A DNA stretch of 64,000 nt from a virus. Its lineage: Duplodnaviria; Caudoviricetes. The notes under the pieces are model-generated. The model did no database searches and was not told the origin of the DNA. It saw only the letters and a list, made by a program, of their open reading frames with translations. Where the stretch lies: the IMG/VR virus record IMGVR_UViG_3300005973_000002; one strand, given 5' to 3'. Positions 4,327 to 63,820 of this stretch are shown here, one piece after another (position 1 is the stretch's first letter; every line of letters begins with the position of its first letter). The position numbers and the translations under genes are program-made.

Positions 4327-4402
4327 TAGGACGCCCAGGAATCGAACCTGGTGACGACACAGTTTATAAGACTGCCGGCTTGAACCATCGGCCTCACGTC
4401 CT
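4327..4402 (-). tRNA. tRNA-Ile(UAU)
   Basis: Cloverleaf; anticodon arm GCAGT-CTTATAA-ACTGT. Confidence 0.85.
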
Positions 4403-7410: not shown

Positions 7411-8994
7411 CTATTGGCCACTTTTTCCATAATTAGGCAACACTCTAGCACTTGGATCGGTAACCTTGCAATTTTCCCATTCTTGGTTGGGCAACCAAAG
7501 TGCAGGTATAAGCTTGTCACGACCAGGATAATGTTTGTCAAAGATTTGACGGTAAAACAAACCTTCTTTGCTTAGTGGAGGTACATGTTTATATTCAGCA
7601 CTCCATGCTTCAAACTCTTTATCAGAAATCATCATTTCTGCATATGCCTTAATTCCATCAGCAACTGAATGTCCAACTGCGTCAGAAAATGCTGCTTTAT
7701 CTCTAAATAAAACATCTTTAGGCAGAAGTTTGAATTCTTCAAAAGAAGAACGTAGAAGGTGCTTTCCAATGCCTGTTGTGTTCATCTTAACCTGTGGATC
7801 AATTGACATAACGAAATCAACAAATTCAAGATCGCCAAATGGCACACGAGCCTCTAGAGCGTGTGAAGAAATACAACGGTCAGCTCTCAACACGTCATAA
7901 AGATAAAGCTCTCTGATGCGCTTCTGAGCCTCTTCCTGAAAAGCCGCAGGAGTCGGTGCAAAGTCTGTGTACTTGTAACCAAAAAGCTCATCAGAAACTT
8001 CACCAGTCATAAGAACTTTAATATCAGTATTCTCACGAATCCATTTACAAACCAAGTACATTCCGATAGATGCTCTTATTGTTGTTACATCCCAAGTTTC
8101 AAGCTGATAAATCAACTCGTCAAGGGTGTTCATAACTTCCTGTTGAGTGAAAGTTACGGTTGTGTGTTCCGCACCAATATATTCGGCCACCTTTTCAGCC
8201 CATGGGTTATCAATAGCATCAAGCTCTGATCCTACCGAAAAAGTTCTAATTGGAGTTTTCAAAAGTTTTGAAGCGATGGCACAAACCAAACTAGAATCTA
8301 AACCACCGCTAAGCAGGAAACCAATCGGTGCATCTGAATGCAAACGCTTTTCTACAGCTTTTGTAAGTTTGGTTGCAATTCCATCCTTCACTTCTTCAAT
8401 AGGCCGATGAAACGTATGCTGGTCTACCATCGACCGAAAGGGCTTCAATTGTCCATTAATGAGGATATGTCCTGGCGGAAACGGCATTACCGTTTCGAAT
8501 AGATCAGTCAATGCTTTTGCTTCGGATGCTAGTGCATATTCTCCATCTGGATTGACTCCGTAAAATAGAGGTCGAATACCAATTGGATCTCGTGCCGCTT
8601 GCAGATCATCAGAACTTGCATTATAATAAACCAGTGCGAATTCAGCATCTAAGTTTTGGGCCGCACGAAGCATACCGACGTTAGCTATTAACGGCAACAG
8701 TGCTTCACAATCAGAAGTAGATCGATAATCATAGCCAGAATACATCTCTCTTAGATGCTTTTCATTGTAAATCTCACCGTTGCAAACTACGAATGCTTCG
8801 TTAGTGTAATCAACAAATGGCTGGTTTCCACGAAACGTCAAATCCATGATTGATAAACGATGAAATGCAATGAAAACATCATTAACTCTTTGATACGTGG
8901 TCAAGTCAGGTCCACGATGCTTTAACCTTGAAGCAGCTTCTACAAGTTTATGTTCAGGGATTTTTATGCCCTTATACGCAAAGATTCCGCACAT
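7411..8994 (-). CDS. asnB: Asparagine synthetase B (glutamine-hydrolysing)
   Basis: N-terminal MCGIF, HRGPD, NGEIYN, LSGGLDSS, TTIRASIGMY, SDELFGY, LRADR, EARVPF. Confidence 0.95.
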   Translation of the reverse strand: MCGIFAYKGIKIPEHKLVEAASRLKHRGPDLTTYQRVNDVFIAFHRLSIMDLTFRGNQPFVDYTNEAFVVCNGEIYNEKHLREMYSGYDYRSTSDCEALLPLIANVGMLRAAQNLDAEFALVYYNASSDDLQAARDPIGIRPLFYGVNPDGEYALASEAKALTDLFETVMPFPPGHILINGQLKPFRSMVDQHTFHRPIEEVKDGIATKLTKAVEKRLHSDAPIGFLLSGGLDSSLVCAIASKLLKTPIRTFSVGSELDAIDNPWAEKVAEYIGAEHTTVTFTQQEVMNTLDELIYQLETWDVTTIRASIGMYLVCKWIRENTDIKVLMTGEVSDELFGYKYTDFAPTPAAFQEEAQKRIRELYLYDVLRADRCISSHALEARVPFGDLEFVDFVMSIDPQVKMNTTGIGKHLLRSSFEEFKLLPKDVLFRDKAAFSDAVGHSVADGIKAYAEMMISDKEFEAWSAEYKHVPPLSKEGLFYRQIFDKHYPGRDKLIPALWLPNQEWENCKVTDPSARVLPNYGKSGQ

Positions 8995-17268: not shown

Positions 17269-17701
17269 ACGTTTTTTCCATCATCACTTTAATAGGCTGT
17301 TCCTCAGATATAACTTCATCCTTGGTGTGTCTAACAGTACCATCAGAAAGAATTATATACACAACACCTGGCTTTTTCCACATGTACTTGATTGTTTCCC
17401 AGGTGCCAGAACCTTTTTGTAAAAGTTTGTCAGTTGGAGGCAATCCAATCAAAACATCAGAAACTTCTACCAAATACCGATTTCTAGCCATATGCCCTAA
17501 GTTGTATGGGGTTACGCCCGTAGAAGCTCCCAGGTCCGCCGCTAAAGCTCTAAACATTTTGTCGGCACCTTCGCCATCATTGTGAATACATAACAGCTTG
17601 TGGTTTTTTAGAAAATGAACAAGAAGCTCTTTGAGTTTTTCGATTTGAGCTTCTGTAAAACCTTCTCGTCTGCCAGTAAAACCTACCACTAATCCTTCCA
17701 T
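17252..17701 (-). CDS. SLOG/DprA-like nucleotide-binding protein
   Basis: VGFTGRR, HNDGEGAD, ARNRYLV..SDVLI, GSGTWETI. Confidence 0.7.
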   Translation of the reverse strand: MEGLVVGFTGRREGFTEAQIEKLKELLVHFLKNHKLLCIHNDGEGADKMFRALAADLGASTGVTPYNLGHMARNRYLVEVSDVLIGLPPTDKLLQKGSGTWETIKYMWKKPGVVYIILSDGTVRHTKDEVISEEQPIKVMMEKTYEEKE

Positions 17702-17731
17702 TGGAACACCTTGCAACAAATAGTAATTTAG

Positions 17732-17856
17732 CGGTATCCACAGGAATCGAACCTGTCTTGTGAGTTGCCTCGTCAGGCACCGGTAGCGGTCCCACAATGT
17801 CTCCCAGCACGGCCGTAGCCATGAAAGCGCAATGTTAGCGCTTATTGACGAATACC
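17732..17856 (-). ncRNA. tRNA-like RNA with a large internal expansion (125 nt)
   Basis: Acceptor GGTATTC/GGATACC, G73, T arm ACAGG-TTCGATT-CCTGT, D-like CAAT/ATTG stem, branched insert. Confidence 0.65.
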
Positions 17857-17861
17857 ATATT

Positions 17862-17955
17862 TGGTAGGGCTAGAGGGGCTCGAACCCCCATCTCAGGTTT
17901 ATCAGACCTTAAGCCGGTTATAAACCGGTTGCATTCACCATTATGCTATAGCCCC
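17862..17955 (-). tRNA. tRNA-Ile with two anticodon arms (UAU and GAU)
   Basis: ACCGG-TTTATAA-CCGGC followed by AAGGT-CTGATAA-ACCTG; normal acceptor, D and T arms and CCA. Confidence 0.85.
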
Positions 17956-18129
17956 AAATTTTGTCTGTAAAGGTACCGTTACCTTCAATACCTACCCGCA
18001 ATGGTAGGCCCCACGGGAACTTCCATCGCACGTATTATTCAAACCCAGCGTTTAGGCTGGTTGAATGAATAAACCCTTGAGTTCAGTCATTTTCGGTTAC
18101 AGACAAAGCTCGTAATCCATCGAGCTTAG

Positions 18130-18203
18130 TGGAGTCATCGGGATTCGAGCCCGATTCTTCGGTTTGCAAGACCGAGATTTTACCCAACATAAACTATGAC
18201 CCC
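18130..18203 (-). tRNA. tRNA-Ala(UGC)
   Basis: G3:U70; CTTGCAA loop. Confidence 0.9.
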
Positions 18204-18209
18204 ATTTTA

Positions 18210-18298
18210 CGACACAACGACCGGGATTCGAACCCGGACTAGGAGCCTACTAAACGCAAATGCTGGGCCCCTGTGCTCCCATTACACTATCGTGTGTC
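18210..18298 (-). ncRNA. tRNA-like RNA with an 18-nt anticodon loop and bulged acceptor
   Basis: AGGGGCC/GGCTCCT stem with loop CAGCATTTGCGTTTAGTA; T arm CCGGG-TTCGAAT-CCCGG. Confidence 0.6.
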
Positions 18299-18532
18299 GG
18301 CTTTCGCCGACTTACTTCAACAAGGATACTCACTTCACTACTCTGAAGGCGCCCGACTTCGTGTTCCGCTGCATTACTAACTTGCAAGCCTGTCCAGGCC
18401 CTTCCCCTGGCTCATGGTTTTTTAAGCCTTTGCGTTTGTTACTAACAAACTTTCATGCAGTATTGTGTCCGTTGGCGTTCCAACATTTCGATCCGTTTTC
18501 ACCTGATTATTTCAGAAGGTTACTCGCAAAAT

Positions 18533-20762: not shown

Positions 20763-20785
20763 ATCATACCGTTCACAGGATTTAG

Positions 20786-20869
20786 CTCCTGGGGTAGGAA
20801 TCGAACCCACATACACCTTTCGGATCACCGGTTAACAGCCGGCCGCTTAAACCATTCAGCCACCCAGGA
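20786..20869 (-). tRNA. tRNA-Asn(GUU) with a 16-nt variable arm
   Basis: GCCGG-CTGTTAA-CCGGT; U1:A72, G73; variable GATCCGAAAGGTGTAT. Confidence 0.85.
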
Positions 20870-21252: not shown

Positions 21253-21260
21253 AAACTTAG

Positions 21261-21332
21261 CAGGGAGAGAAGGACTTCCACCTTCAACTTCCGGCTCAAT
21301 ACGCCGGGCTTTTGTCGTTAAGCTATCTCCCT
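21261..21332 (-). tRNA. Atypical tRNA with AUU (Asn) anticodon
   Basis: Fully paired cloverleaf; loop GTATTGA; non-canonical T loop TGGAAGT; G73. Confidence 0.6.
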
Positions 21333-25547: not shown

Positions 25548-25728
25548 GATTGTAAATATTGTTTTGCTCTTTCTAAAATCTCCACAGAATCCCTGAAAAG
25601 ACCTAATCCAGTATTACAACTACTGTAACGCTTGAAACTCCTGTTTGCAACTTTGACAAATCTTCGTTTCTTTTTTCTCTGTATCTCATGGTGTTAACAG
25701 TTTATCATGAGATAAAAAGACTGTTTAG

Positions 25729-25801
25729 TTGGCCCACTGGGAATCGAACCCAGATCTCAGCTTTATCAGAGCTGCGTGCTAAACCGCTCTACTATGGGCC
25801 A
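25729..25801 (-). tRNA. tRNA-Ile(GAU)
   Basis: CAGCT-CTGATAA-AGCTG. Confidence 0.92.
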
Positions 25802-27100: not shown

Positions 27101-27774
27101 TGGTCGTTCCGGGAAGAATCGAACTTCCATATTCGCTTTATCAGTCAACCAATCCAAGTTGGCGTAGTTTCTTCTTTACAGCAACGTCAGACACACCGAC
27201 AATTTTGGCTATTTCTGTATAGGTCATCTTGTTTTTTACAGCTAAACTCAAATCAACCTTTTCCCATTTACCTTTGATTTTAGTTTTGCCAACACAAGCC
27301 TGCGAACAATATTTTCGCAAATCAGATTTCAATTTACCACAATGTTTACAAGGTGTTAGATTTATATGTTTTTCTTTGCGATATTTCTCAAAAGAAAAAT
27401 CAAATCTAACAATATCTTTTGGGATTGTTGTGATTTCGTCATGAACTTCACGATGACAATTTGCACAAAGTAAAACACATTTTTTTGCTTCTTTTACTAG
27501 TTTTTCCCATCGTGCTACCTTGTTCCATTTTGAAAATGTGAAATCTTTTTCATCTTTATTTAGATGATGGAATTCTAAAGCTTTTAGTGTTTTACTGTAT
27601 CCACATATTCCGCATTTACTTCCAAAAGCCTCTTTGAGACGTTTAATGGTGCGTTCACGCCATGCTTTTACATACTTGTATTCTGCCATCGTCTAACCTC
27701 AATGCATAACTATATCATAGTTGGATATAAATCTATAGAGGTTCGATGCCCTTAGGCCATTAGACGACGGAACG
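27101..27774 (-). pseudogene. tRNA-Ile(GAU) split by an HNH gene (3' half 27101-27144; 5' half about 27745-27774)
   Basis: 5' acceptor CGTTCCG pairs fully with 3' CGGAACG-A-CCA; D arm upstream and CTGATAA loop plus T arm downstream of the HNH ORF. Confidence 0.85.
27141..27689 (-). CDS. HNH homing endonuclease inside tRNA-Ile
   Basis: CGICG..ALEFHH...KCVLLCANCHREVH; C-terminal HTH-like segment. Confidence 0.9.
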   Translation of the reverse strand: MAEYKYVKAWRERTIKRLKEAFGSKCGICGYSKTLKALEFHHLNKDEKDFTFSKWNKVARWEKLVKEAKKCVLLCANCHREVHDEITTIPKDIVRFDFSFEKYRKEKHINLTPCKHCGKLKSDLRKYCSQACVGKTKIKGKWEKVDLSLAVKNKMTYTEIAKIVGVSDVAVKKKLRQLGLVD

Positions 27775-27788
27775 ATATGCCGGATCAA

Positions 27789-27864
27789 TACAACAACAGT
27801 TGGATTCGAACCAACAACCTGGACTTTCATAGAGCCCCGCTCTACCATTGCAGCTATGTGTTGT
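27789..27864 (-). tRNA. Atypical tRNA with AUG (His) anticodon and bulged acceptor
   Basis: GGGCT-CTATGAA-AGTCC; acceptor ACAACACA/TGT-T-GTTGT. Confidence 0.65.
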
Positions 27865-28939: not shown

Positions 28940-28948
28940 ATTATTTAG

Positions 28949-29036
28949 TGGGCCCCTAGGGATTCGAACCCTAAATGGGGATTGGTTACCCGCCTGGTTA
29001 AGAGCCAGGTGCCTTCAACCGTTCAGCCAGAGACCC
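28949..29036 (-). tRNA. tRNA-Lys(CUU) with a 19-nt variable arm
   Basis: CCTGG-CTCTTAA-CCAGG; class II-type D arm; variable CGGGTAACCAATCCCCATT. Confidence 0.85.
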
Positions 29037-29043
29037 ATGTTAG

Positions 29044-29115
29044 CGGGGCAGGTTGGATTCGAACCAACACTTTCTAGCTTCAGCTAGACGTGCTACCAAT
29101 TAACACTACCGCCCC
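29044..29115 (-). tRNA. tRNA-Phe(GAA)-like with a 6-nt anticodon loop
   Basis: TCTAG-CTGAAG-CTAGA; one base short, possibly a sequencing indel. Confidence 0.7.
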
Positions 29116-36035: not shown

Positions 36036-36716
36036 TTACTTTAATCCTGTTATTTTACCACGATAATAATCTTTGTAGGATATTTTCTTACCAGTAATGT
36101 GACAACTTACAATGTTGTGCTTTACCTGGATGGTGCGAATCTTATCTCCACGCATTCCGGAGCCGACCTGTTCTTGACGAATTTGCTCACGCTTTTTCGA
36201 ATATATTTTTTTCTTTTCACTTAAGAGCTTTGCTTTTAAGATTGCAAGAGCATTTTCTCGGTTAGTTTTTTGACTTTTTGAACTCTCAGCTCTTACAGTA
36301 ACACCAGATGGTAGATGTGTTAACTGAACAGCGGTTGCATTCTTGTTTCGATGTTGGCCACCAGGCCCACTTCCGCAAGTAAACGATTCTTTTAAATCCT
36401 TAGGATCTATATGAATTTCCTGCTGCTTTGCCTCAGGTAACACAGCTACCGTAATAGTGCTGGTATGTACTCGCCCACGTTTTTCGGTTGGTGGTACACG
36501 TTGCCAACGCAAGCCACCAGCTTCACTTTCAAAGAATCTTATTACTCCTTTTCCAGAAACCTTAAAAACAACAATATTTTCGTTAATTGTTATTTCTTCT
36601 ATAGAAAAATTCATAAGATTACAAGCTTTCCCATAAATTCCAAATTGTACGTGTATCAAATCACGGGCATCGGCACCACCCTCTCCGGGCCTTATTTCTA
36701 CAATTATACTTTCCAT
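36036..36716 (-). CDS. Short RF1-like peptide chain release factor
   Basis: VEIRPGEGG, QRVPPTEKRGRVHTS (PxT), SGPGGQHRNK, GMRGDKIRT; no N-terminal domain 1. Confidence 0.88.
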   Translation of the reverse strand: MESIIVEIRPGEGGADARDLIHVQFGIYGKACNLMNFSIEEITINENIVVFKVSGKGVIRFFESEAGGLRWQRVPPTEKRGRVHTSTITVAVLPEAKQQEIHIDPKDLKESFTCGSGPGGQHRNKNATAVQLTHLPSGVTVRAESSKSQKTNRENALAILKAKLLSEKKKIYSKKREQIRQEQVGSGMRGDKIRTIQVKHNIVSCHITGKKISYKDYYRGKITGLK

Positions 36717-39029: not shown

Positions 39030-40205
39030 TCACTTTACAAGTTTTGTAAACAGCTCAGTCTCACGTCGTTCAATTTCTTGTCCGATTTCTCGTCCCTTTA
39101 AACCCTGAGCCATCAACTCTTGTCCACTCACGGATGGTTCGTATTTAATAAATGCATCTACCAAATTCATGTCCGGCTCACCACTAAGTTGAGCAAATTC
39201 CTTCAAGTCCTCAGGAGAAAGTCGTGTCGGCTTCCACAATTTTTTCAAATGATAAGCATTCTCGGGAGAAAGGTTTTGAAAAAGATTAAGAAAAGCAATT
39301 TGCCTAGTTTCAACTACACTGTATTTTAAGTTGTTTAACTTTTGAGACAAAACTTTAGGATTGTTATCTCGTGTAAGAAGAGCAAGTTGCACTGGGATGT
39401 TCTTTGTTTCTTCATACCACGTGTTTAGCTTTAACCCAGGTAAAATCTTTTCCCATAAATTGAAAGAGTCATAAAGACGATGTAAGGCCCTGACGGATTG
39501 GGCACTCTTAATGCTTTTCAAGAATTCATCTCTGATTCTTTCAGGCGACACACCCTCTAAGGAATTATTTGCCCTAATGGCGTCTTCGGTCGGTTTATCA
39601 AGCCCAGCACCCATACGAGCTGCAAATCTAATAGCTCGCAAAATTCTCAGTCTGTCCTCATCAAATCTTTCTGAGGGATCTCCAACAGCTCTAACCACAC
39701 CTTTTTCTAGATCTTCAAGACCGCCTACCAAGTCCACAACTTCTTGACTGTCGATGTCATAAAAAAGTGCGTTAATTGTAAGATCACGACGTTTCACATC
39801 ATTTTCAATAGTAGTAAACTCAACTGCATCGGGTCGTCGACCCACCAAAGACTTAAATTCTCGATATTCTTCTGGAAAAAGTTGTGCGGCTTTATTTTTC
39901 CAATTAGCCGACTCTGTCAACTTGTTTGTGGTTGTTGGGGTAAATGTGATAAAGATACCATCTGTAGGATCACCCTCCACGACACTGATACTATCAGTGC
40001 TGTACTCATCGAAAATTTTATAGTGTTCATCCCACCAATCTTCTTCGGGTGTACCTGCTTCATATCGACATCCGAGTGTATGAGTTTCAATGAACCAGCC
40101 ATTTACAATAACAGTATCACCACAAGTTCTTGCAGTCTTCAATTTAGCCAGAAGGTCATTTCCAGCCTTTTGAACGGTTGCAGGTAAATCTTCATACTTG
40201 GTCAT
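39030..40205 (-). CDS. cca: CCA-adding enzyme (tRNA nucleotidyltransferase), C-terminal piece
   Basis: DVKRRDLTINALFY, RFDEDRLRILRAIRF, VSPERIRDE; probable start ATG 40205 with GGAG 8 nt upstream. Confidence 0.85.
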   Translation of the reverse strand: MTKYEDLPATVQKAGNDLLAKLKTARTCGDTVIVNGWFIETHTLGCRYEAGTPEEDWWDEHYKIFDEYSTDSISVVEGDPTDGIFITFTPTTTNKLTESANWKNKAAQLFPEEYREFKSLVGRRPDAVEFTTIENDVKRRDLTINALFYDIDSQEVVDLVGGLEDLEKGVVRAVGDPSERFDEDRLRILRAIRFAARMGAGLDKPTEDAIRANNSLEGVSPERIRDEFLKSIKSAQSVRALHRLYDSFNLWEKILPGLKLNTWYEETKNIPVQLALLTRDNNPKVLSQKLNNLKYSVVETRQIAFLNLFQNLSPENAYHLKKLWKPTRLSPEDLKEFAQLSGEPDMNLVDAFIKYEPSVSGQELMAQGLKGREIGQEIERRETELFTKLVK

Positions 40206-40920
40206 CAACATATCTCCACATAAAACCACCAGCTTGTTTCCTGTACTTTTTGTTTCTGGCAGCACAGCTAATGTTTCTAATTCCCAAGTCTTTTTGAGCT
40301 TTATCAACACTTTCCCAAATTTGGATCATTTCACCGTCTAAAGTCATTTGCATTACTTTTTTCTTGTTCCAAGCTGATTTTCCTCTACGAGCTTTAGAAA
40401 TCTTCTGCTTTTGTGCTTCTGTACAAGGTTTTCCAAGTCTTCTGGTGTTACCTATAAGTGACTTGGAAATATTTTTCTTGTGTACAGAAGTTAATTTTCG
40501 ACCCTTATGCTGTCTAGCAACTTGTGCTATTTTTTGCTTCGCCTTCTCACTGTGCTTATAACCGTGAGATCCAACCTCTCCTCCAGAAGTGACATTTGTT
40601 AAATCACAACCTTTGTCTTTGAAATATTGAATCCAATACCGCTCTCGTTCTGTCAACAAACTTTCTTCACATTTTTCAATGGCAATTATCCTCAGTTTGG
40701 AGAGCAATCCTTTTCTCTCCAATAATCGCAACCAATTATTCTTATGCGAGTTATTCTTGTTCCTTCGATGCTTATGCTTAGAGAGTCTAACGTTTAGCTT
40801 TGATACAGTTTTACCAACATATCTGACCTCATTAGTCATTGGGCATACGAGCGAGTAGACGCAGCCTTTTCTTCCAGTTTTCTGGCTGTTTTTCTTGGAT
40901 GAATTTAACGAAACTTTCAT
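40192..40920 (-). mobile_element. GIY-YIG homing endonuclease inserted in cca
   Basis: VYSL..RYVGKT, RLSKH, ERYWI, NUMOD-like repeats. Confidence 0.9.
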
Positions 40921-41779
40921 AATCATCTTTTAAATATGAATCTTCACGGAAAGTTGCTATTTCATATTCATTGCCCTCAGGGGTTATAACATTGATAACA
41001 CCAAATGCCTTCCCAACTTCCATTGTTTTGTACTCTGGGAATTTCCTGATTATTTCAAGAATGCGATTAGGATTAGCATCTGTGGCCACATCATAATCCT
41101 TAGGTTCTTTACCCAGCAATGCATCCCGTACTGCTCCACCTACAACGTAAAGTTGATGTCCAGCTTTTGAAAAGATTTGTGATAATCTTTGAATGTCAGC
41201 AGGTATTTTCATATTAAAGGGCTTTCGCACTGATTCAACTAAGAAATTGAAATTTTCATTTAAAATTTCATCAATAAGCCATTTAACGCTTTCGTTTTTA
41301 GCCTCAGTTTCTTGGTTGTCTTTTTTTGGCACCTGATCCAGTGGCGAAGGTTGCTTTTTCTGCAAATATTTTTTAAACTTGCGCTCCCGTTTTTTGCGAG
41401 GTACAGTGTAATGTTTTTTTAACAACTGATCAATGGTAGATTGGTACCAGCGCTTTGCCTGTCCAGCAAGTTTGTTGTCATCTACAAAATGATCAATATA
41501 AAGACGCACTCCGTGCGTATCACCGGATTGACGTGGGTCCATATCTGGATCCATTTTAAGCAAGCCTGACAACTGGTCGAGTTTCTTGGTTGGAGAGTAT
41601 CCTCCCCTGACTGATGACACGGAAAACTTAGCAAGTTTAGTCAAATCATCATGAATTTCGGGAAAATTTTTCTTCATGTGATTAACGTAATCTTGCGATA
41701 GCTCCTCACGGTGTTCGAGCATGACTTCATCAAGCACTTCCTCAATCAAATATACAAGGTCTTTCTTTTTCATGGACAT
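40832..41779 (-). CDS. cca: CCA-adding enzyme, N-terminal catalytic piece with about 180 extra N-terminal residues
   Basis: LYVVGGAVRDALLGKEPKDYDVATDA, VGKAFGV, EIATFR. Confidence 0.88.
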   Translation of the reverse strand: MSMKKKDLVYLIEEVLDEVMLEHREELSQDYVNHMKKNFPEIHDDLTKLAKFSVSSVRGGYSPTKKLDQLSGLLKMDPDMDPRQSGDTHGVRLYIDHFVDDNKLAGQAKRWYQSTIDQLLKKHYTVPRKKRERKFKKYLQKKQPSPLDQVPKKDNQETEAKNESVKWLIDEILNENFNFLVESVRKPFNMKIPADIQRLSQIFSKAGHQLYVVGGAVRDALLGKEPKDYDVATDANPNRILEIIRKFPEYKTMEVGKAFGVINVITPEGNEYEIATFREDSYLKDDYESFVKFIQEKQPENWKKRLRLLARMPND

Positions 41780-58603: not shown

Positions 58604-58731
58604 ACATCAAGCTAATTGCTTAGCTATAGATAATTTCTTAAAATTGCTGTTTATCTTCTTTTGCGGACGAACTATACTAAAATACAGGTTGATACTTATG
58701 GTTCTGTTTGAACCTAGCGCAAAGGATATTA

Positions 58732-60480
58732 ATGAGCAATTACCCCAAGAAATTCGTTGGGCTTCATAGCCATAGCACATTCTCGATTGGGGATGCTATC
58801 GGCATGCCTCAAGATCATATTGACTTTGCCAGAGAAAACGGCATGGATGCGATAGCTCTTACTGATCATGGAAACATGAACGGATATTCGCATCAATATT
58901 TTCATGGGCAGAAACTTAAGAAAGAAGGCATAAACTTCAAGGCCATCCCTGGAATTGAAGCATATTTTGTTGATTCACTTTCAAAGTGGCGTGAACTTTA
59001 CGAGTCGGATAAAGAAAAGAAAAGACTCAAGAAGCTGGCTGAAAAGGGGGATCAAGATGCCTTGGAGGCGCTAAAGCGCAAAGGTGAACTTCTAGGAGAT
59101 CCATTTGCCGAAACAAAAGAACAGATGGATGAAGACATGGCTGGAGGCACAGTCGTTGAAAACGAAGAAGAATCAAAATCCAACAAGTTCAAAGACCCGA
59201 TTAAACAGCGCAATCACCTTGTTCTTCTCCCAAAAAACAACGAAGGGTTACAAGCACTATTCCAGCTCGTCACCGAGTCTTACATAAACGGCTTTTATCG
59301 TTATCCTCGAATCGATCTTGACCTACTTAAGAAGTATTCAAAAGGAAACATCATTGCACTTACAGCCTGTATTGCTGGTGTTCCAGCTCGCAAGGTGTTT
59401 GATCACCAGACAGAACCCGACTGGGAAAAATGGGGACCAACGCAAGAAAACTTCGAGCTGATTCAAAAAGATTTGAAAGAAATGGCTGACCAGTTCAAAT
59501 GGGCTCTCGGTGATGAGAATTTCTATTTGGAAATTCAGTTTAACGCACTTGGTGCGCAGCATCTGGTAAATCAACATCTTATTGAATGCAGCAAGAGAAC
59601 CAACACACTATTAGTTTGCACGGTTGATGCTCACTATTCCCACCCTGACCACTGGAAGGAAAGAGAAATTTACAAGATGATGGCTTGGTCTTCAAAGGGC
59701 CAGGCGATGGACAAATCCAAACTGCCCCAGAAAATCGATGAGCTTAAGTGTGAACTTTACCCCAAGAATGCTGAACAAGTTTGGGATTCATACAAGCGAT
59801 ACACTGATGGAAAAGGGTGGGATTTTTATGATGATGATGTAGTCCGAGAAGCAATTGAACGTTCGCACATTATTGCTCACGAGCAAATTGACACCATAGA
59901 TCCTGACACTTCTGTGAAACTACCTTCGATTTCATCAATGGTTGACGAATGCAGCATGAAAGAAATCGTAAGCAAGTACGGCAAAGAACTTGGCGATGAT
60001 GAAATTGCGTTTCAAGAATTGAAACGTCAGGCAATAGCTGGTATCAAGTCTCGTGGACTCGCAAATAACCAAGAATATGTTGATAGGCTCAAACACGAGT
60101 TACGTGTCGTGAAGTACCTTGGATTCTCCAAGTATTTCTTGACTTACTCCAAGATTATGGAAATAGTTTCTGAACACATGCTTATTGGTAACGCACGTGG
60201 ATGTTTCCTTCCAGGCTCTCGTGTTATGATGGCAGATGAAATGTTTGCCGAAATTGAAAATATTCTTGTCGGAGACAAAGTTATAGATGCCTTTGGTAAG
60301 GAGCAGACAGTTGAAAACACATTTGAATACGATGTGGATGAAGAGTGTATTGAACTGGAATTTGATGATGGCAGAGTGATTAAATGCACGAAGGACCATG
60401 AAATTCTAACGACAAATAGAGGTTGGGTAGAGGCTCAACATCTAACAGAAGAAGATAATGTGGCAGAAGTTAAACTTTAA
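58732..60480 (+). CDS. dnaE: DNA polymerase III alpha, N-part (PHP domain) plus split-intein N fragment
   Basis: LHSHSTFS, LTDHG, HLVLL, YRYPRID, DAHY; GNARG then CFLPGS. Confidence 0.93.
   Translation: MSNYPKKFVGLHSHSTFSIGDAIGMPQDHIDFARENGMDAIALTDHGNMNGYSHQYFHGQKLKKEGINFKAIPGIEAYFVDSLSKWRELYESDKEKKRLKKLAEKGDQDALEALKRKGELLGDPFAETKEQMDEDMAGGTVVENEEESKSNKFKDPIKQRNHLVLLPKNNEGLQALFQLVTESYINGFYRYPRIDLDLLKKYSKGNIIALTACIAGVPARKVFDHQTEPDWEKWGPTQENFELIQKDLKEMADQFKWALGDENFYLEIQFNALGAQHLVNQHLIECSKRTNTLLVCTVDAHYSHPDHWKEREIYKMMAWSSKGQAMDKSKLPQKIDELKCELYPKNAEQVWDSYKRYTDGKGWDFYDDDVVREAIERSHIIAHEQIDTIDPDTSVKLPSISSMVDECSMKEIVSKYGKELGDDEIAFQELKRQAIAGIKSRGLANNQEYVDRLKHELRVVKYLGFSKYFLTYSKIMEIVSEHMLIGNARGCFLPGSRVMMADEMFAEIENILVGDKVIDAFGKEQTVENTFEYDVDEECIELEFDDGRVIKCTKDHEILTTNRGWVEAQHLTEEDNVAEVKL
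60202..60477 (+). mobile_element. Split intein N fragment (92 aa)
   Basis: CFLPGSRV...CTKDHEILT.RGWVEA..L. Confidence 0.9.
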
Positions 60481-60592
60481 ACACCAGAAAAAAACACTTG
60501 AAGCGTTAATAAACGCTGTTTCTATTGTTCGGTAAAATTAATAGGTAAAACACCCCCAGGAGTGTTTCCAATAAACAAGCATAATTAAAAAT

Positions 60593-61512
60593 ATGGGTGG
60601 AAAAGTAACTTGTCCTAAGTTAACAAACGAACAAATTAAAGTTGTCAAGCAATTAAAGATCCATGTCTCACAGAAGAATTACTCAAACCGTATCTTTTAA
60701 AATGGGATTTGTCTTGGCATTCATTTAAACGTAGATTACGACGTTCTGGCTTAAGCCAAACATTTGCTTATTCCTGGAATGAGTTTCAAACTAACCCAAA
60801 ACTTCATAGCAAATACAATAAAAACAATCTCTATATAAGGTGCCCTTGTGGCAAAGATTATGTTTGTATAGTTTTTGGTTTTGTTAATAGAAAATACCAA
60901 GTTCCAGTTTGTGATGAATGTTATAAAACACAATATTCTTATGATGAAGAGTGGCGACAGAACAACAGTAAGGCACAGCTAATAGCCCAAAATAACCCAA
61001 AAACAATTGCCAAACAAAGAGCTTCGCAGAAGAAACGACATGCTCAACCTGGTATGAAAGAAAAATATAGAAAAATTGGGCTAAAACTGTGGGAAGATAA
61101 GAACTATCGTAAAAAAGTAATCAAAAATTCTTCCATAACCATGTCTGGTATTTACAAGAAAATTGAATATCAGAGTTCATATGAACTTGCTTTCATAATG
61201 TGGAACCTTGAACAAGGCAACGACATTAAACGGTTTGATTTGGAAGGTATTCCTTATTTGTGGGAAGGCAAAGAGCATAGATACTATTCTGATTTCATTG
61301 TTAATGAAAACAAAATAGTAGAGGATAAAGGTAAAGGAAGCATCTATAACAAACATAAAGAATTGTGCGCTACCAAAAACAAAGCATTGAAAGTTTGGTG
61401 CAGAAGCAATAGCTTTTATGATAGACTTGTATTTGATACAGACCTTTCAAAAGACCTAATCAAGAAGGCGAGAAAATGGCACAAGGAGAACTCCATTGGC
61501 AAAATTAGTTAG
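60593..61512 (+). CDS. Free-standing PD-(D/E)XK (TnsA-like) endonuclease between the dnaE halves, with a -1 indel near 60655
   Basis: YQSSYE..F, RYYSDFIV..IVEDKG; ATG 60593 joins the 60709 frame if one A is added at 60655-60657. Confidence 0.75.
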
Positions 61513-63820
61513 AAAAACACCCTTTCAATACAAGGGCAAAGTTCACGATCTTACCGTAAGTGAAAGCCACTCTTACAATATTGAAGGTTTAGGTGTTCAT
61601 AATTCAGCCGGCGGGTCTTTGCTTTCATACGTGTTAAACGTGACTCAACTTGATCCGATCAAGCATGGTCTTTTGTTCGAGCGTTTTCTTACCAGATTTA
61701 AGAAGGGCTTCCCAGACATCGACTCTGATTTTGCTGATCGAGAAAAGGCTGTTAAGCTAATCACAGAGCACTTTGGAGAAGAAAACGTCATTCCAATTTC
61801 AAACTTCAACCAGCTTCAATTGCGTTCCCTTATTAAGGATTTGTGTCGCTTGAACGGTGTTCCATTTGATGAGGTGAACAAATATACGAAGAAAATTGAG
61901 GCTGAAGCACTTTCAGAAGCTAAAAAGAAGCCAGGATTTGACGCACAGCAGTGGACCTTGACTTTCGATGAAGCTGATGATAAATCCGAAACCTTCCGCA
62001 AGCTTATGAAGGAATACCCGGATTTAGAGACACACATCAAAGTGCTCTTCAAGCAGATGCGAAATGTAAGTCGACATGCTGGCGGTGTCATTATCACTGA
62101 AAGTCCTGAACAACACATGCCGATTATCAAAAGTGGCGGTGTTTTACAAACGCCTTGGCAGGAAGGTCTTAACTTCCGTCATCTTGAGGGATTCGGGCTG
62201 TTAAAGTTCGACATCCTTGGCCTTGGAACACTCCGCATGTTTGAGAACTGCATTAAGCGAATCTTGAAGAAGCAGGGTATTAAGTACCCAACTTTCCGTC
62301 AAGTTAATAAGTGGTTCTATGAAAATCTCCATCCAGACAATAACTCGCTTGATGATATTGAAGTCTACAAGAATGTGTATTGGGAAGGCAATTGGGCTGG
62401 TGTTTTTCAGTTTGTACAGCCGCCTGTACAAAAGTTCGTAAAGAAAATGAAACCAGAAAGCATTCTGGACATCGCAACCGCAACATCTATCTTCCGCCCA
62501 GGTCCGCTTGGTATTGGCGCTGATAAGATGTATTTGAAAAACAGAAAAAACCCTGAAAGCATCCTTTATAAGCATCCACTACTCGAAGAAGTTCTTGCAC
62601 CAACTTGCGGTCTTCTCGTATTCCAGGAGCAGTTGCAACTCATTTACCACAAGCTTGCGGGTGTTCCATTAGAAGAAACGGATGGCATTCGTAAAGCTCT
62701 CTTGAAGAAGGACAAGTCTAACAAGAAAGAGCAAGAAAGATACTTGCGTGAATTACGAGAAGAATTTGCTAATAAAGCACTTGAAACTAATAATATTCCT
62801 AAGTCTACCAGCTATGACATTTTCGAGGAAATGGCCACATTCGTAGCGTATTCATTCAATAAATCTCACGCTACAGCATACGCAATTACATCATATCAGT
62901 GTGCATGGTTGCTTACACGCTACCCTGAGGAGTGGGTTGCTTCTTATATTGATTATTGTGCCACAGAAAAAGGTACGGTTACAGGTAAAGAGTCTCCTCT
63001 ATCGGTAGCACTTGGAGAGGCTAAGGGGTTGGGCTTTAAGATCGGTAAACCAGATATCAATAAGTCCGAGATTGATTACCAGGTAAAAGACAAGACTCTG
63101 GTGCCCAGCTTCCAAGCATTGAAACATGTAGGTTTGCCAGCCCTTAGAGAAATTGATCAATATCGCCCATACGAAAAGATTGAAGACCTCTTGTGGAATC
63201 CTGATGAAAGCTGGCGTCATAGCAAGTTCAACAAGAGAGCAATGTCTACGCTTGTAAAGCTAGAGGCTTTCAATTCTATGGGACTGGTTGGACCAGATAA
63301 AGAATTCAAAAACTATCGACAACTTTACTATGTTTTGGTTGATCAGGTTGATGAAATTAAGCGAGCCTGCAACAGAAAGAAAGCGCCAAGACCACCAGAA
63401 GTTCTAGCTAAACTTATAAGGGAAGCTCAAGAGCTTGAAGATTGGTCAGTTGATGAAAAGATCAAACACAGTCAAAATCTATCAGGAACTGTGGACATCA
63501 GTTTAATTCTAACAGAGCAAATCAGAAGTTATCTTGAGTCACAGGGAATTGGTTCGGTTGATGAGTGGAAGTTTGATAATCAAGTTCTATGGTGTGTGGT
63601 AAAGCGAAGCATGGTAGCCAAGACTAGAAACGGAAAACCATACCTTCGTATGAAAGTTTATGGTGAATCTGGCCAAGAACAGCATTGTTTCGTTTGGGGA
63701 TACAAGCCTGGGCAGCACGGCATAGTCCCTAACAACACTTTGATAATTGGCAAGTTCAAAAAAAGTGATTTTGGTCTTTCAAGTTTCTATGCTAGTATTG
63801 ATGTTCTTGAACGCAAATAG
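61496..63820 (+). CDS. dnaE: Split-intein C fragment (36 aa) plus DNA polymerase III alpha C-part
   Basis: VHDLTV.ESHSYNIEGLGVHN|SAGGSLL; FPDIDSD, RHAGG, KFDILGL, AYSFNKSHA; TTG start with AAGGAG upstream. Confidence 0.93.
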   Translation: MAKLVRKTPFQYKGKVHDLTVSESHSYNIEGLGVHNSAGGSLLSYVLNVTQLDPIKHGLLFERFLTRFKKGFPDIDSDFADREKAVKLITEHFGEENVIPISNFNQLQLRSLIKDLCRLNGVPFDEVNKYTKKIEAEALSEAKKKPGFDAQQWTLTFDEADDKSETFRKLMKEYPDLETHIKVLFKQMRNVSRHAGGVIITESPEQHMPIIKSGGVLQTPWQEGLNFRHLEGFGLLKFDILGLGTLRMFENCIKRILKKQGIKYPTFRQVNKWFYENLHPDNNSLDDIEVYKNVYWEGNWAGVFQFVQPPVQKFVKKMKPESILDIATATSIFRPGPLGIGADKMYLKNRKNPESILYKHPLLEEVLAPTCGLLVFQEQLQLIYHKLAGVPLEETDGIRKALLKKDKSNKKEQERYLRELREEFANKALETNNIPKSTSYDIFEEMATFVAYSFNKSHATAYAITSYQCAWLLTRYPEEWVASYIDYCATEKGTVTGKESPLSVALGEAKGLGFKIGKPDINKSEIDYQVKDKTLVPSFQALKHVGLPALREIDQYRPYEKIEDLLWNPDESWRHSKFNKRAMSTLVKLEAFNSMGLVGPDKEFKNYRQLYYVLVDQVDEIKRACNRKKAPRPPEVLAKLIREAQELEDWSVDEKIKHSQNLSGTVDISLILTEQIRSYLESQGIGSVDEWKFDNQVLWCVVKRSMVAKTRNGKPYLRMKVYGESGQEQHCFVWGYKPGQHGIVPNNTLIIGKFKKSDFGLSSFYASIDVLERK

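Follow-up and report, generated by a model that had tools for sequence, protein, structure and literature searches.

A tRNA-Ile(UAU) gene with a second, GAU-bearing arm in a huge phage, and its relatives in phage and bacterial tRNA arrays

The tRNA gene at 17862-17955 raises the question of why a tRNA with the isoleucine anticodon UAU should carry an additional hairpin that displays another isoleucine anticodon, GAU. The gene lies in a 64,000-nt stretch of viral DNA (Caudoviricetes; IMG/VR record IMGVR_UViG_3300005973_000002), the whole of which was analysed and is referred to below as the window. The codon AUA is usually read by a tRNA with the anticodon CAU, which TilS converts to lysidine. 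Ordinary bacterial IleRS reads position 34 via a conserved Trp and accepts G34 or lysidine, but U34 only poorly.

Structure and setting of the gene

ARAGORN called a 94-nt tRNA-Ile(UAU) with a long variable arm at 17862-17955 (Table 1). The Rfam tRNA model (RF00005) matched the gene at 57.6 bits over model positions 1-71 of 71, with a gathering threshold of 29, and aligned the second hairpin as a 20-nt insertion within the variable region. All five helices were present in the minimum-energy fold (-34.4 kcal/mol, z = -2.45). The gene is confirmed as a real tRNA, more than a chance match, and its remaining arms and CCA are intact, as an earlier reading made from the letters alone (the sequence-only reading) had stated. 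The account given there of a UAU arm followed by a 23-nt variable region that forms a hairpin with the loop CUGAUAA also proved exact to the letter. Its description of two complete anticodon arms was accurate in that both arms are there, but each stem consists of four Watson-Crick pairs and a non-standard closing pair (A.C in arm 1, A.G in arm 2). Both 7-nt loops, UUUAUAA and CUGAUAA, are complete isoleucine anticodon loops in the window gene, as proposed; in arm 1, UAU occupies positions 34-36, with U33 and A37 present.

Table 1. Features of the two-arm tRNA gene, with positions in the window.
Feature	Position	Strand	Remarks
Whole tRNA gene, 94 nt	17862-17955	(-)	ARAGORN tRNA-Ile(UAU); Rfam; family model R1
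Encoded CCA; discriminator A73	17862-17864; 17865	(-)	
T arm GGGGG/UUCGAGC/CCCUC and acceptor 3' strand	17866-17889	(-)	All pairs covary
AGAU, 3' of arm 2	17890-17893	(-)	Resembles an ordinary short variable loop
Arm 2, variable-region hairpin AAGGU/CUGAUAA/ACCUG	17894-17910	(-)	Closing pair A.G
GAU triplet of arm 2	17901-17903	(-)	
UU linker joining arms 1 and 2	17911-17912	(-)	Positions 44-45 in a class II reading
Arm 1, canonical anticodon arm ACCGG/UUUAUAA/CCGGC	17913-17929	(-)	Directly after position 26
Anticodon UAU of arm 1	17920-17922	(-)	
Acceptor 5' strand, U8-A9, 4-bp D stem with 8-nt D loop, A26	17930-17955	(-)	

On the minus strand, the acceptor stem reads GGGGCUA/UAGCCCU (7 bp) and is followed by UA, and the D arm reads GCAU-AAUGGUGA-AUGC, with the 4-bp stem and 8-nt loop of the class I type. 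The acceptor/T configuration is 7/5 in the window gene and in all aligned relatives. Within the arrays, the closest relatives of the tRNA body were class I tRNAs, and a Leu, Ser or Tyr tRNA never ranked first. The hairpin-containing variable region (23 nt) is not of the short 4-5 nt type. The UU linker can form two further pairs, U-A and U.G, beyond the A.G pair and so lengthen arm 2, as in the minimum-energy fold. The AGAU that follows arm 2 also stands after the anticodon arm in the ordinary Ile-GAU tRNA of the window.

The region 17600-18400 was covered without a single difference in Logan contigs of four separately assembled hypersaline-lake metagenome runs, some of which are possibly the source sample; the pieces were 19-181 kb long in three of them. 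This identical stretch, together with the recurrence of the same design in distant phages and bacteria, excluded the misassembly that the sequence-only reading had named as a possible refutation. An assembly artefact or a dead gene is also extremely improbable given the agreement of the four runs, the encoded CCA and the intact helices, which covary across dozens of independent assemblies.

The window belongs to a huge phage, and proteins identical to those of the window were found on contigs of up to 461 kb. The window encodes a large terminase, an intein-interrupted DnaE-type polymerase, a class II aminoacyl-tRNA synthetase and an asparagine synthase, as well as a CCA-adding enzyme, a release-factor-like protein and HNH endonucleases. 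ARAGORN identified 49 tRNA genes in the window, and 43 scored above the Rfam threshold. AUA accounts for 18% of the isoleucine codons in the window ORFs. The sole other candidate AUA decoder of the window, a tRNA-Ile(UAU) at 4327-4402 (-), has G in the place of U8 and several mismatches; its score of 28.0 bits is marginal, just below the 29-bit threshold of Rfam, and it may be non-functional. In the GenBank phage collection, there was no near match to the window, and a distant search returned only an ordinary tRNA-Ala.

A family of two-arm tRNA-Ile genes

Searching phage genomes for tandem isoleucine arms, as the sequence-only reading had suggested, recovered the same design in divergent tRNAs. 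The first pattern, applied to IMG/VR, required a UAU loop, then a CUGAUAA loop and then a T loop. The UAU-then-GAU design was found on phage contigs of 32-380 kb, always within tRNA arrays, in tRNAs that differed greatly from one another in the acceptor, D and T stems. A metagenome scan added at least 10 members of this design, which brought the total to at least 16 distinct genes. In an alignment of 12 sequences including the window gene, every helix covaried; three of the five pairs changed on both sides in the stem of arm 1 and likewise in that of arm 2, and the basal A.G pair of arm 2 was non-standard in all 12. The linker between the arms was mostly UU, or otherwise ended in U, in the relatives. 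AG(A/G)U after arm 2 was conserved across the family. A73 was found in all examined members from phages and metagenomes; among the bacterial members, only L315 and L335 lacked it, with U in this column. The family was defined by a UAU arm, 1-5 nt and then a hairpin with GAU at loop positions 3-5, with the A.G closing pair, AG(A/G)U after the hairpin and A73 as further features, all of which occur in the window gene.

A covariance model (R1) was built from the 12-sequence alignment. The window gene, one of the training sequences, scored 94.1 bits, a value that is partly due to this construction, and the next score in the window was that of the ordinary Ile-GAU tRNA (56.3 bits). Training members scored 83-100 bits and independently found members 54-88 bits; ordinary tRNAs almost all scored 57 bits or less, with one Lys tRNA at 63.6, so that they overlap with members at the low end. 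Applied to 43 viral contigs (40 from unrelated chance pattern matches and three known carriers), R1 identified one further variant (L248).

Of five large carrier contigs, a single one had a match to the window TerL (37% identity), and the carriers are therefore not one close clade; the two-arm tRNA is spread over distant phages. A TerL-based search for relatives in IMG/VR yielded only five short contigs, too few for mapping on a phage tree. An ordinary tRNA-Ile(GAU) usually accompanies the two-arm gene in the carrier arrays, often as its direct neighbour. Bacterial copies (L315-L336) were found in chromosomal arrays of Pyrinomonadaceae, Heliomicrobium and Dehalococcoidaceae MAGs. These arrays are dense, with 15-34 tRNA genes within 8 kb, and the two-arm gene is usually next to an ordinary tRNA-Ile(GAU). 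Of the 401 Acidobacteriota genomes sampled, the starting genome alone had the two-arm tRNA, and three other matches were chance matches outside tRNAs.

Arm order proved strict, as did the association with UAU. The reversed order, GAU-then-UAU, gave 18 pattern matches and CAU-then-GAU gave nine, none of which was a tRNA; among the 114 new matches listed for UAU followed by CUNNNAA, none was a two-arm tRNA whose second triplet differed from GAU. Plain tRNA-Ile(UAU) genes with a short variable loop occur in other phages (L223, L228 and L250), so a UAU tRNA need not have the extra arm.

The sequence-only reading had explained the gene as a recombination product of the two isoleucine genes of the window. 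This explanation was not upheld. Arm 2 differs from the Ile-GAU gene (25728-25801) at three of five stem pairs and arm 1 differs from the marginal Ile-UAU gene, indicating that the two-arm gene is not a recent local recombinant, and the design is that of an old and widespread family. We conclude that the two-arm gene is a real, conserved and new structural variant of tRNA-Ile, with high confidence in its anatomy.

Several known tRNAs share some of these features. The variable arms of known class II tRNAs have short loops and no conserved sequence. As in class II tRNAs (Leu, Ser, Tyr and Sec), a base-paired arm stands between the anticodon and T arms of the two-arm tRNA (ARAGORN, Infernal); unlike them, the two-arm tRNA combines a class I D arm with an isoleucine anticodon, its extra arm ends in a 7-nt loop in which a triplet is conserved, and 4-5 unpaired bases follow that arm. 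Assignment to the Leu, Ser or Tyr class was rejected: the long paired arm is present, but the anticodon is UAU and the body is of the class I type. The TilS-independent bacterial tRNA-Ile(UAU), or tRNA-Ile3, of Mycoplasma mobile, Bifidobacterium and Neorickettsia (PMC3575796; PMC8450103) resembles the two-arm tRNA in having UAU in a normal 7-nt loop and A73, and it reads AUA without lysidine. However, tRNA-Ile3 has an ordinary short variable loop in place of the 23-nt region with the GAU hairpin. Moreover, M. mobile has an altered IleRS in which Arg replaces the Trp that stacks on the wobble base (PMC3575796), whereas the two bacterial two-arm carriers have a Trp-type IleRS.

Nematode nev-tRNA-Ile(UAU) likewise has both a UAU anticodon and a long variable arm, but nev-tRNAs are derived from tRNA-Leu and charged with leucine (PMC3333845), whereas the two-arm tRNA has a class I-like body and displays an isoleucine anticodon on its arm. 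The nev-tRNAs were set aside as a match, as the two-arm tRNA occurs in phages and bacteria and its body is not closest to tRNA-Leu. The allo-tRNAs(UAU) share the origin from metagenomes, the location in tRNA polycistrons, the long arm and the frequent UAU (Mukai et al., PMC5389517). They have 8/4 or 9/3 configurations and serine identity, in contrast to the 7/5 configuration and A73 of the two-arm tRNA, and the paper describing them mentions neither a GAU loop nor IleRS (PMC5389517). An allo-tRNA was ruled out by the 7-bp acceptor stem and 5-bp T stem of the window gene and every aligned relative. The genomic setting of the two-arm genes, tRNA arrays that are transferred horizontally in phages and bacteria, is itself known (PMC8421152, PMC4758250, PMC6582537). 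The papers on these arrays describe no extra arm on an Ile(UAU) gene; one finding among them is that Mycobacterium mucogenicum expresses a tRNA-Ile(TAT) from such a cluster. A full-text search of the published literature found no description of a GAU-bearing arm on tRNA-Ile(UAU), in line with the sequence-only reading, which knew of no described equivalent.

Conservation of the loops and possible roles of the second arm

Since the first scans demanded both loops, they were silent on loop conservation. Scans blind to one loop at a time were therefore performed, with the conserved flanks (AG...CGAG-purine) and the T loop as anchors. With loop 1 left free, 64 viral matches were obtained, of which 45 were tRNAs (25 distinct); U33-U34-A35-U36-A37 was invariant in all 25, and only positions 32 and 38 varied. 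In the scan blind to loop 2, the long-armed tRNA-Ile(UAU) accounted for 24 of 29 viral matches and 15 of 22 matches in prokaryote genomes, giving 39 tRNAs, 31 of which were distinct. These carried ten different second loops (CUGAUAA, CAGAUUA, CAGAUCA, CAGAUGA, CCGAUUA, CGGAUUA, UAGAUUG, CUGAUAC, CUGAUAU and CGGACUG). The full CUGAUAA loop was a minority form (5/31). G and A of the triplet were present in 31/31 and U in 30/31, the single exception (L325) having GAC in place of GAU. The equivalent of U33 was U in only seven of the 31, the equivalent of the purine at position 37 was a purine in nine, and positions 2 and 6 of the loop each showed all four bases. On a tree built without these columns, parsimony gave 2, 10, 0, 0, 1, 10 and 5 changes along loop 2, that is, 27 changes at the four flanking positions and one within the GAU triplet. 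Covariation between loop positions 2 and 6 (U-A, A-U, G.U) is frequent and could reflect a GAU triloop with another partner.

We conclude with high confidence that selection acts on the GAU of arm 2. Arm 1, which keeps all features of a decoding loop, is the presumptive decoding arm, and arm 2 appears to be an element for the display of GAU rather than, in general, a second decoding arm. The reading that we favour, with a probability approaching an even chance, is that GAU serves as an identity tag through which an ordinary Trp-type IleRS could charge a TilS-independent AUA decoder. That identity is split from decoding, with one arm reading AUA and the synthetase reading a GAU copy on the other, is a tentative proposal, somewhat short of an even chance. 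The gene would then supply a functional tRNA-Ile that reads the rare AUA codon. Decoding on the ribosome would be the task of arm 1, which stacks beneath the D stem in the canonical position, and the GAU at loop positions 3-5 of arm 2, which is the anticodon of the major tRNA-Ile, would be offered to IleRS. We infer that the tRNA is charged with isoleucine, that IleRS is the reader of GAU and that arm 2 docks in the anticodon-binding site of this enzyme, probably by alternative stacking of the five-way junction; arm 2 may replace arm 1 under the D stem during charging. Such stacking is required by the identity-tag reading because, in the standard L-shape, a variable arm is directed away from the IleRS domain that binds the anticodon. 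The resulting AUA decoder would be independent of TilS and of a specialised IleRS and portable between hosts, which fits the location of the genes in mobile tRNA arrays.

Data on E. coli IleRS bear on this reading. Charging of a UAU variant reached 1.1% of the value for native tRNA-Ile2(LAU) and was 360-fold lower than that of the corresponding LAU transcript, and this poor charging is caused by the conserved Trp that stacks on base 34 (PMC3575796). The IleRS of two bacterial carriers retains the R-C-W (Arg-Cys-Trp) motif. An IleRS-like enzyme was sought on five large carrier phage contigs and none was found on four of them, where a host enzyme must therefore charge the two-arm tRNA; the fifth contig had a weak class I synthetase match of 548 aa. 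Several observations count against an identity tag, namely the plain phage tRNA-Ile(UAU) genes, the single GAC member and the covariation of positions 2 and 6. E. coli IleRS also relies on t6A37 (PMC3575796), and the pyrimidine at the equivalent of position 37 in most second loops implies that there is no t6A there, which likewise argues against this reading. The meaning of AUA was compared in homologue columns of DnaE and TerL, which provided 12 usable AUA sites, all in poorly conserved columns; these sites had an intermediate score of 0.09, compared with 0.78 for Ile columns and -0.70 for Leu columns.

Arm 2 might instead be read by a partner other than IleRS: it could serve as a decoy or shield against a nuclease acting on tRNA-Ile(GAU), offer a point of attachment to a modification enzyme, or bind an isoleucine-specific RNA sensor, for example a T-box leader whose specifier is AUC. 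We consider this group of explanations, taken together, unlikely. The sequence-only reading had likewise put forward a nuclease decoy, along with a conformational switch and continued function after one loop is cut, as possibilities. The retention of GAU alone in a hairpin of fixed size would suit any reader of GAU, and phage tRNA arrays are thought to oppose host attack on tRNAs, which favours a role of this kind. However, no RNA repair or ligase gene was found among the 30 window ORFs scanned, and the two-arm tRNA is also present in bacterial chromosomal arrays. A decoy, moreover, would have no reason for a constant tie to UAU, yet all 25 distinct genes in the scan blind to loop 1 have UAU. 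This strict link would also be left unexplained if arm 2 had no sequence-specific partner and was a structural arm or a relic of an old duplicated tRNA-Ile(GAU) anticodon arm, with GAU kept for folding, for example as a triloop. The sequence from arm 2 onward, with a stem ending in G and then AGAU or AGGU, is like the 3' half of tRNA-Ile(GAU), which suggests that arm 2 may have originated by an old insertion or duplication, and the frequent pairing of loop positions 2 and 6 is consistent with a structural role. Nevertheless, even drift would be expected in a relic, but the changes were concentrated at the flanking positions (27 versus 1 at G-A-U), and inspection of the alignment by eye revealed no conserved complement of GAU elsewhere in the tRNA. 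We regard a structural arm or relic as improbable.

The sequence-only reading held that the two anticodons together cover AUA, AUC and AUU. The completeness of both loops in the window gene stands, but the claim is weakened by the retention of only G-A-U in loop 2 across the family. For both arms to decode, the arm under the D stem would have to switch, with AUA read by one and AUC and AUU by the other. Arm 2 has the dimensions of an anticodon arm, and its loop matches an anticodon loop at every position (C32 U33 G A U A37 A38) in at least 16 distinct genes with very different acceptor stems; these genes, however, came from the pattern that demanded CUGAUAA, and in the scan blind to loop 2, U33 and purine 37 occurred in only 7/31 and 9/31, respectively. 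An ordinary tRNA-Ile(GAU) is usually present in the carrier arrays, so that a second reader of AUC and AUU is unneeded, and decoding by both arms is accordingly quite unlikely. Charging of the long-armed tRNA with Leu, Ser or Tyr, with AUA partly recoded, has a still smaller probability. It is suggested by the long variable arm and by A73, which is a requirement of LeuRS. Additionally, nev-tRNA(UAU) takes leucine (PMC3333845), allo-tRNAs often have UAU (PMC5389517) and the AUA columns were intermediate between Ile-like and Leu-like at the 12 poorly conserved sites. In contrast, the configuration is 7/5 and not 8/4 or 9/3, position 73 is A and not the G73 of Ser, the D arm and the nearest relatives of the body are of class I, the arm displays an isoleucine anticodon, and Leu made up 21% of the homologue columns at AUA sites versus 65% at true Leu codons.

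If GAU is indeed an identity tag for IleRS, it would be, to our knowledge, the first known natural anticodon identity element placed outside the decoding anticodon. It would also account for the supply of AUA decoders by phages and mobile arrays without host TilS or a specialised IleRS, and would offer a ready design for tRNAs with changeable codon reading and retained charging. For annotation, tRNA finders either miss such genes or label them as long-armed but otherwise plain Ile(UAU), and a long arm with an anticodon other than that of Leu, Ser or Tyr can be misread as a sign of recoding.

Other features of the window and related arrays

Unusual variable regions were also observed in other tRNA genes. 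The window contains a tRNA-Asn(GUU) with a paired long variable arm and a GAAA loop (20785-20869, -), and such long-armed tRNA-Asn(GUU) genes of 85-88 nt were present in three unrelated huge-phage arrays (the window, L002:2259-2346 and L005:1455-1541). The window also encodes a class II synthetase of the Asp/Lys/Asn type (2-1135) and an asparagine synthase (7411-8994). An 89-nt tRNA-Lys(CUU) at 28948-29036 (-; Rfam 51 bits) has a 21-nt hairpin in its variable region, with no evident anticodon-like triplet in the extra loop. In other phages, an 86-nt tRNA-Ile(GAU) has an unexpectedly long variable region (L065:3815-3900), and the extra region of an 89-nt tRNA-Pro(UGG) contains CUGAUAA without a clear hairpin with a 7-nt loop (L250:1054-1142).

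Among the remaining tRNA genes of the window, a weak one at 18213-18295 (-; Rfam 32.4 bits), directly upstream of tRNA-Ala, has approximately 19 nt where the anticodon loop belongs, possibly owing to a small insertion or decay of the gene. The intron mode of ARAGORN reported a tRNA-Glu(CUC) split by a 574-nt insert at 27101-27774 (-). The insert holds a 182-aa ORF (27141-27689), and no Rfam group I intron was found at threshold within the window. Two tRNAs have A at the wobble position, Asn(AUU) at 21260-21332 and His(AUG) at 27792-27864 (-), and ARAGORN assigned a two-base 'anticodon' to the gene at 29043-29115.

Several protein-coding genes of the window were short or divided. A 226-aa ORF with PCRF and RF-1 domains (36036-36716, -) encodes a short release-factor-like protein beside the tRNA array. 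The head domain of the CCA-adding enzyme (39030-41779, -) is divided over two ORFs, with profile positions 1-77 in 40832-41779 and 74-126 in 39030-40310, and an overlapping 244-aa ORF lies between them. The DnaE-type polymerase (58708-63820, +) is likewise in two ORFs, with Hint/intein signatures at the end of the first and a 267-aa ORF (60709-61512) between the two.
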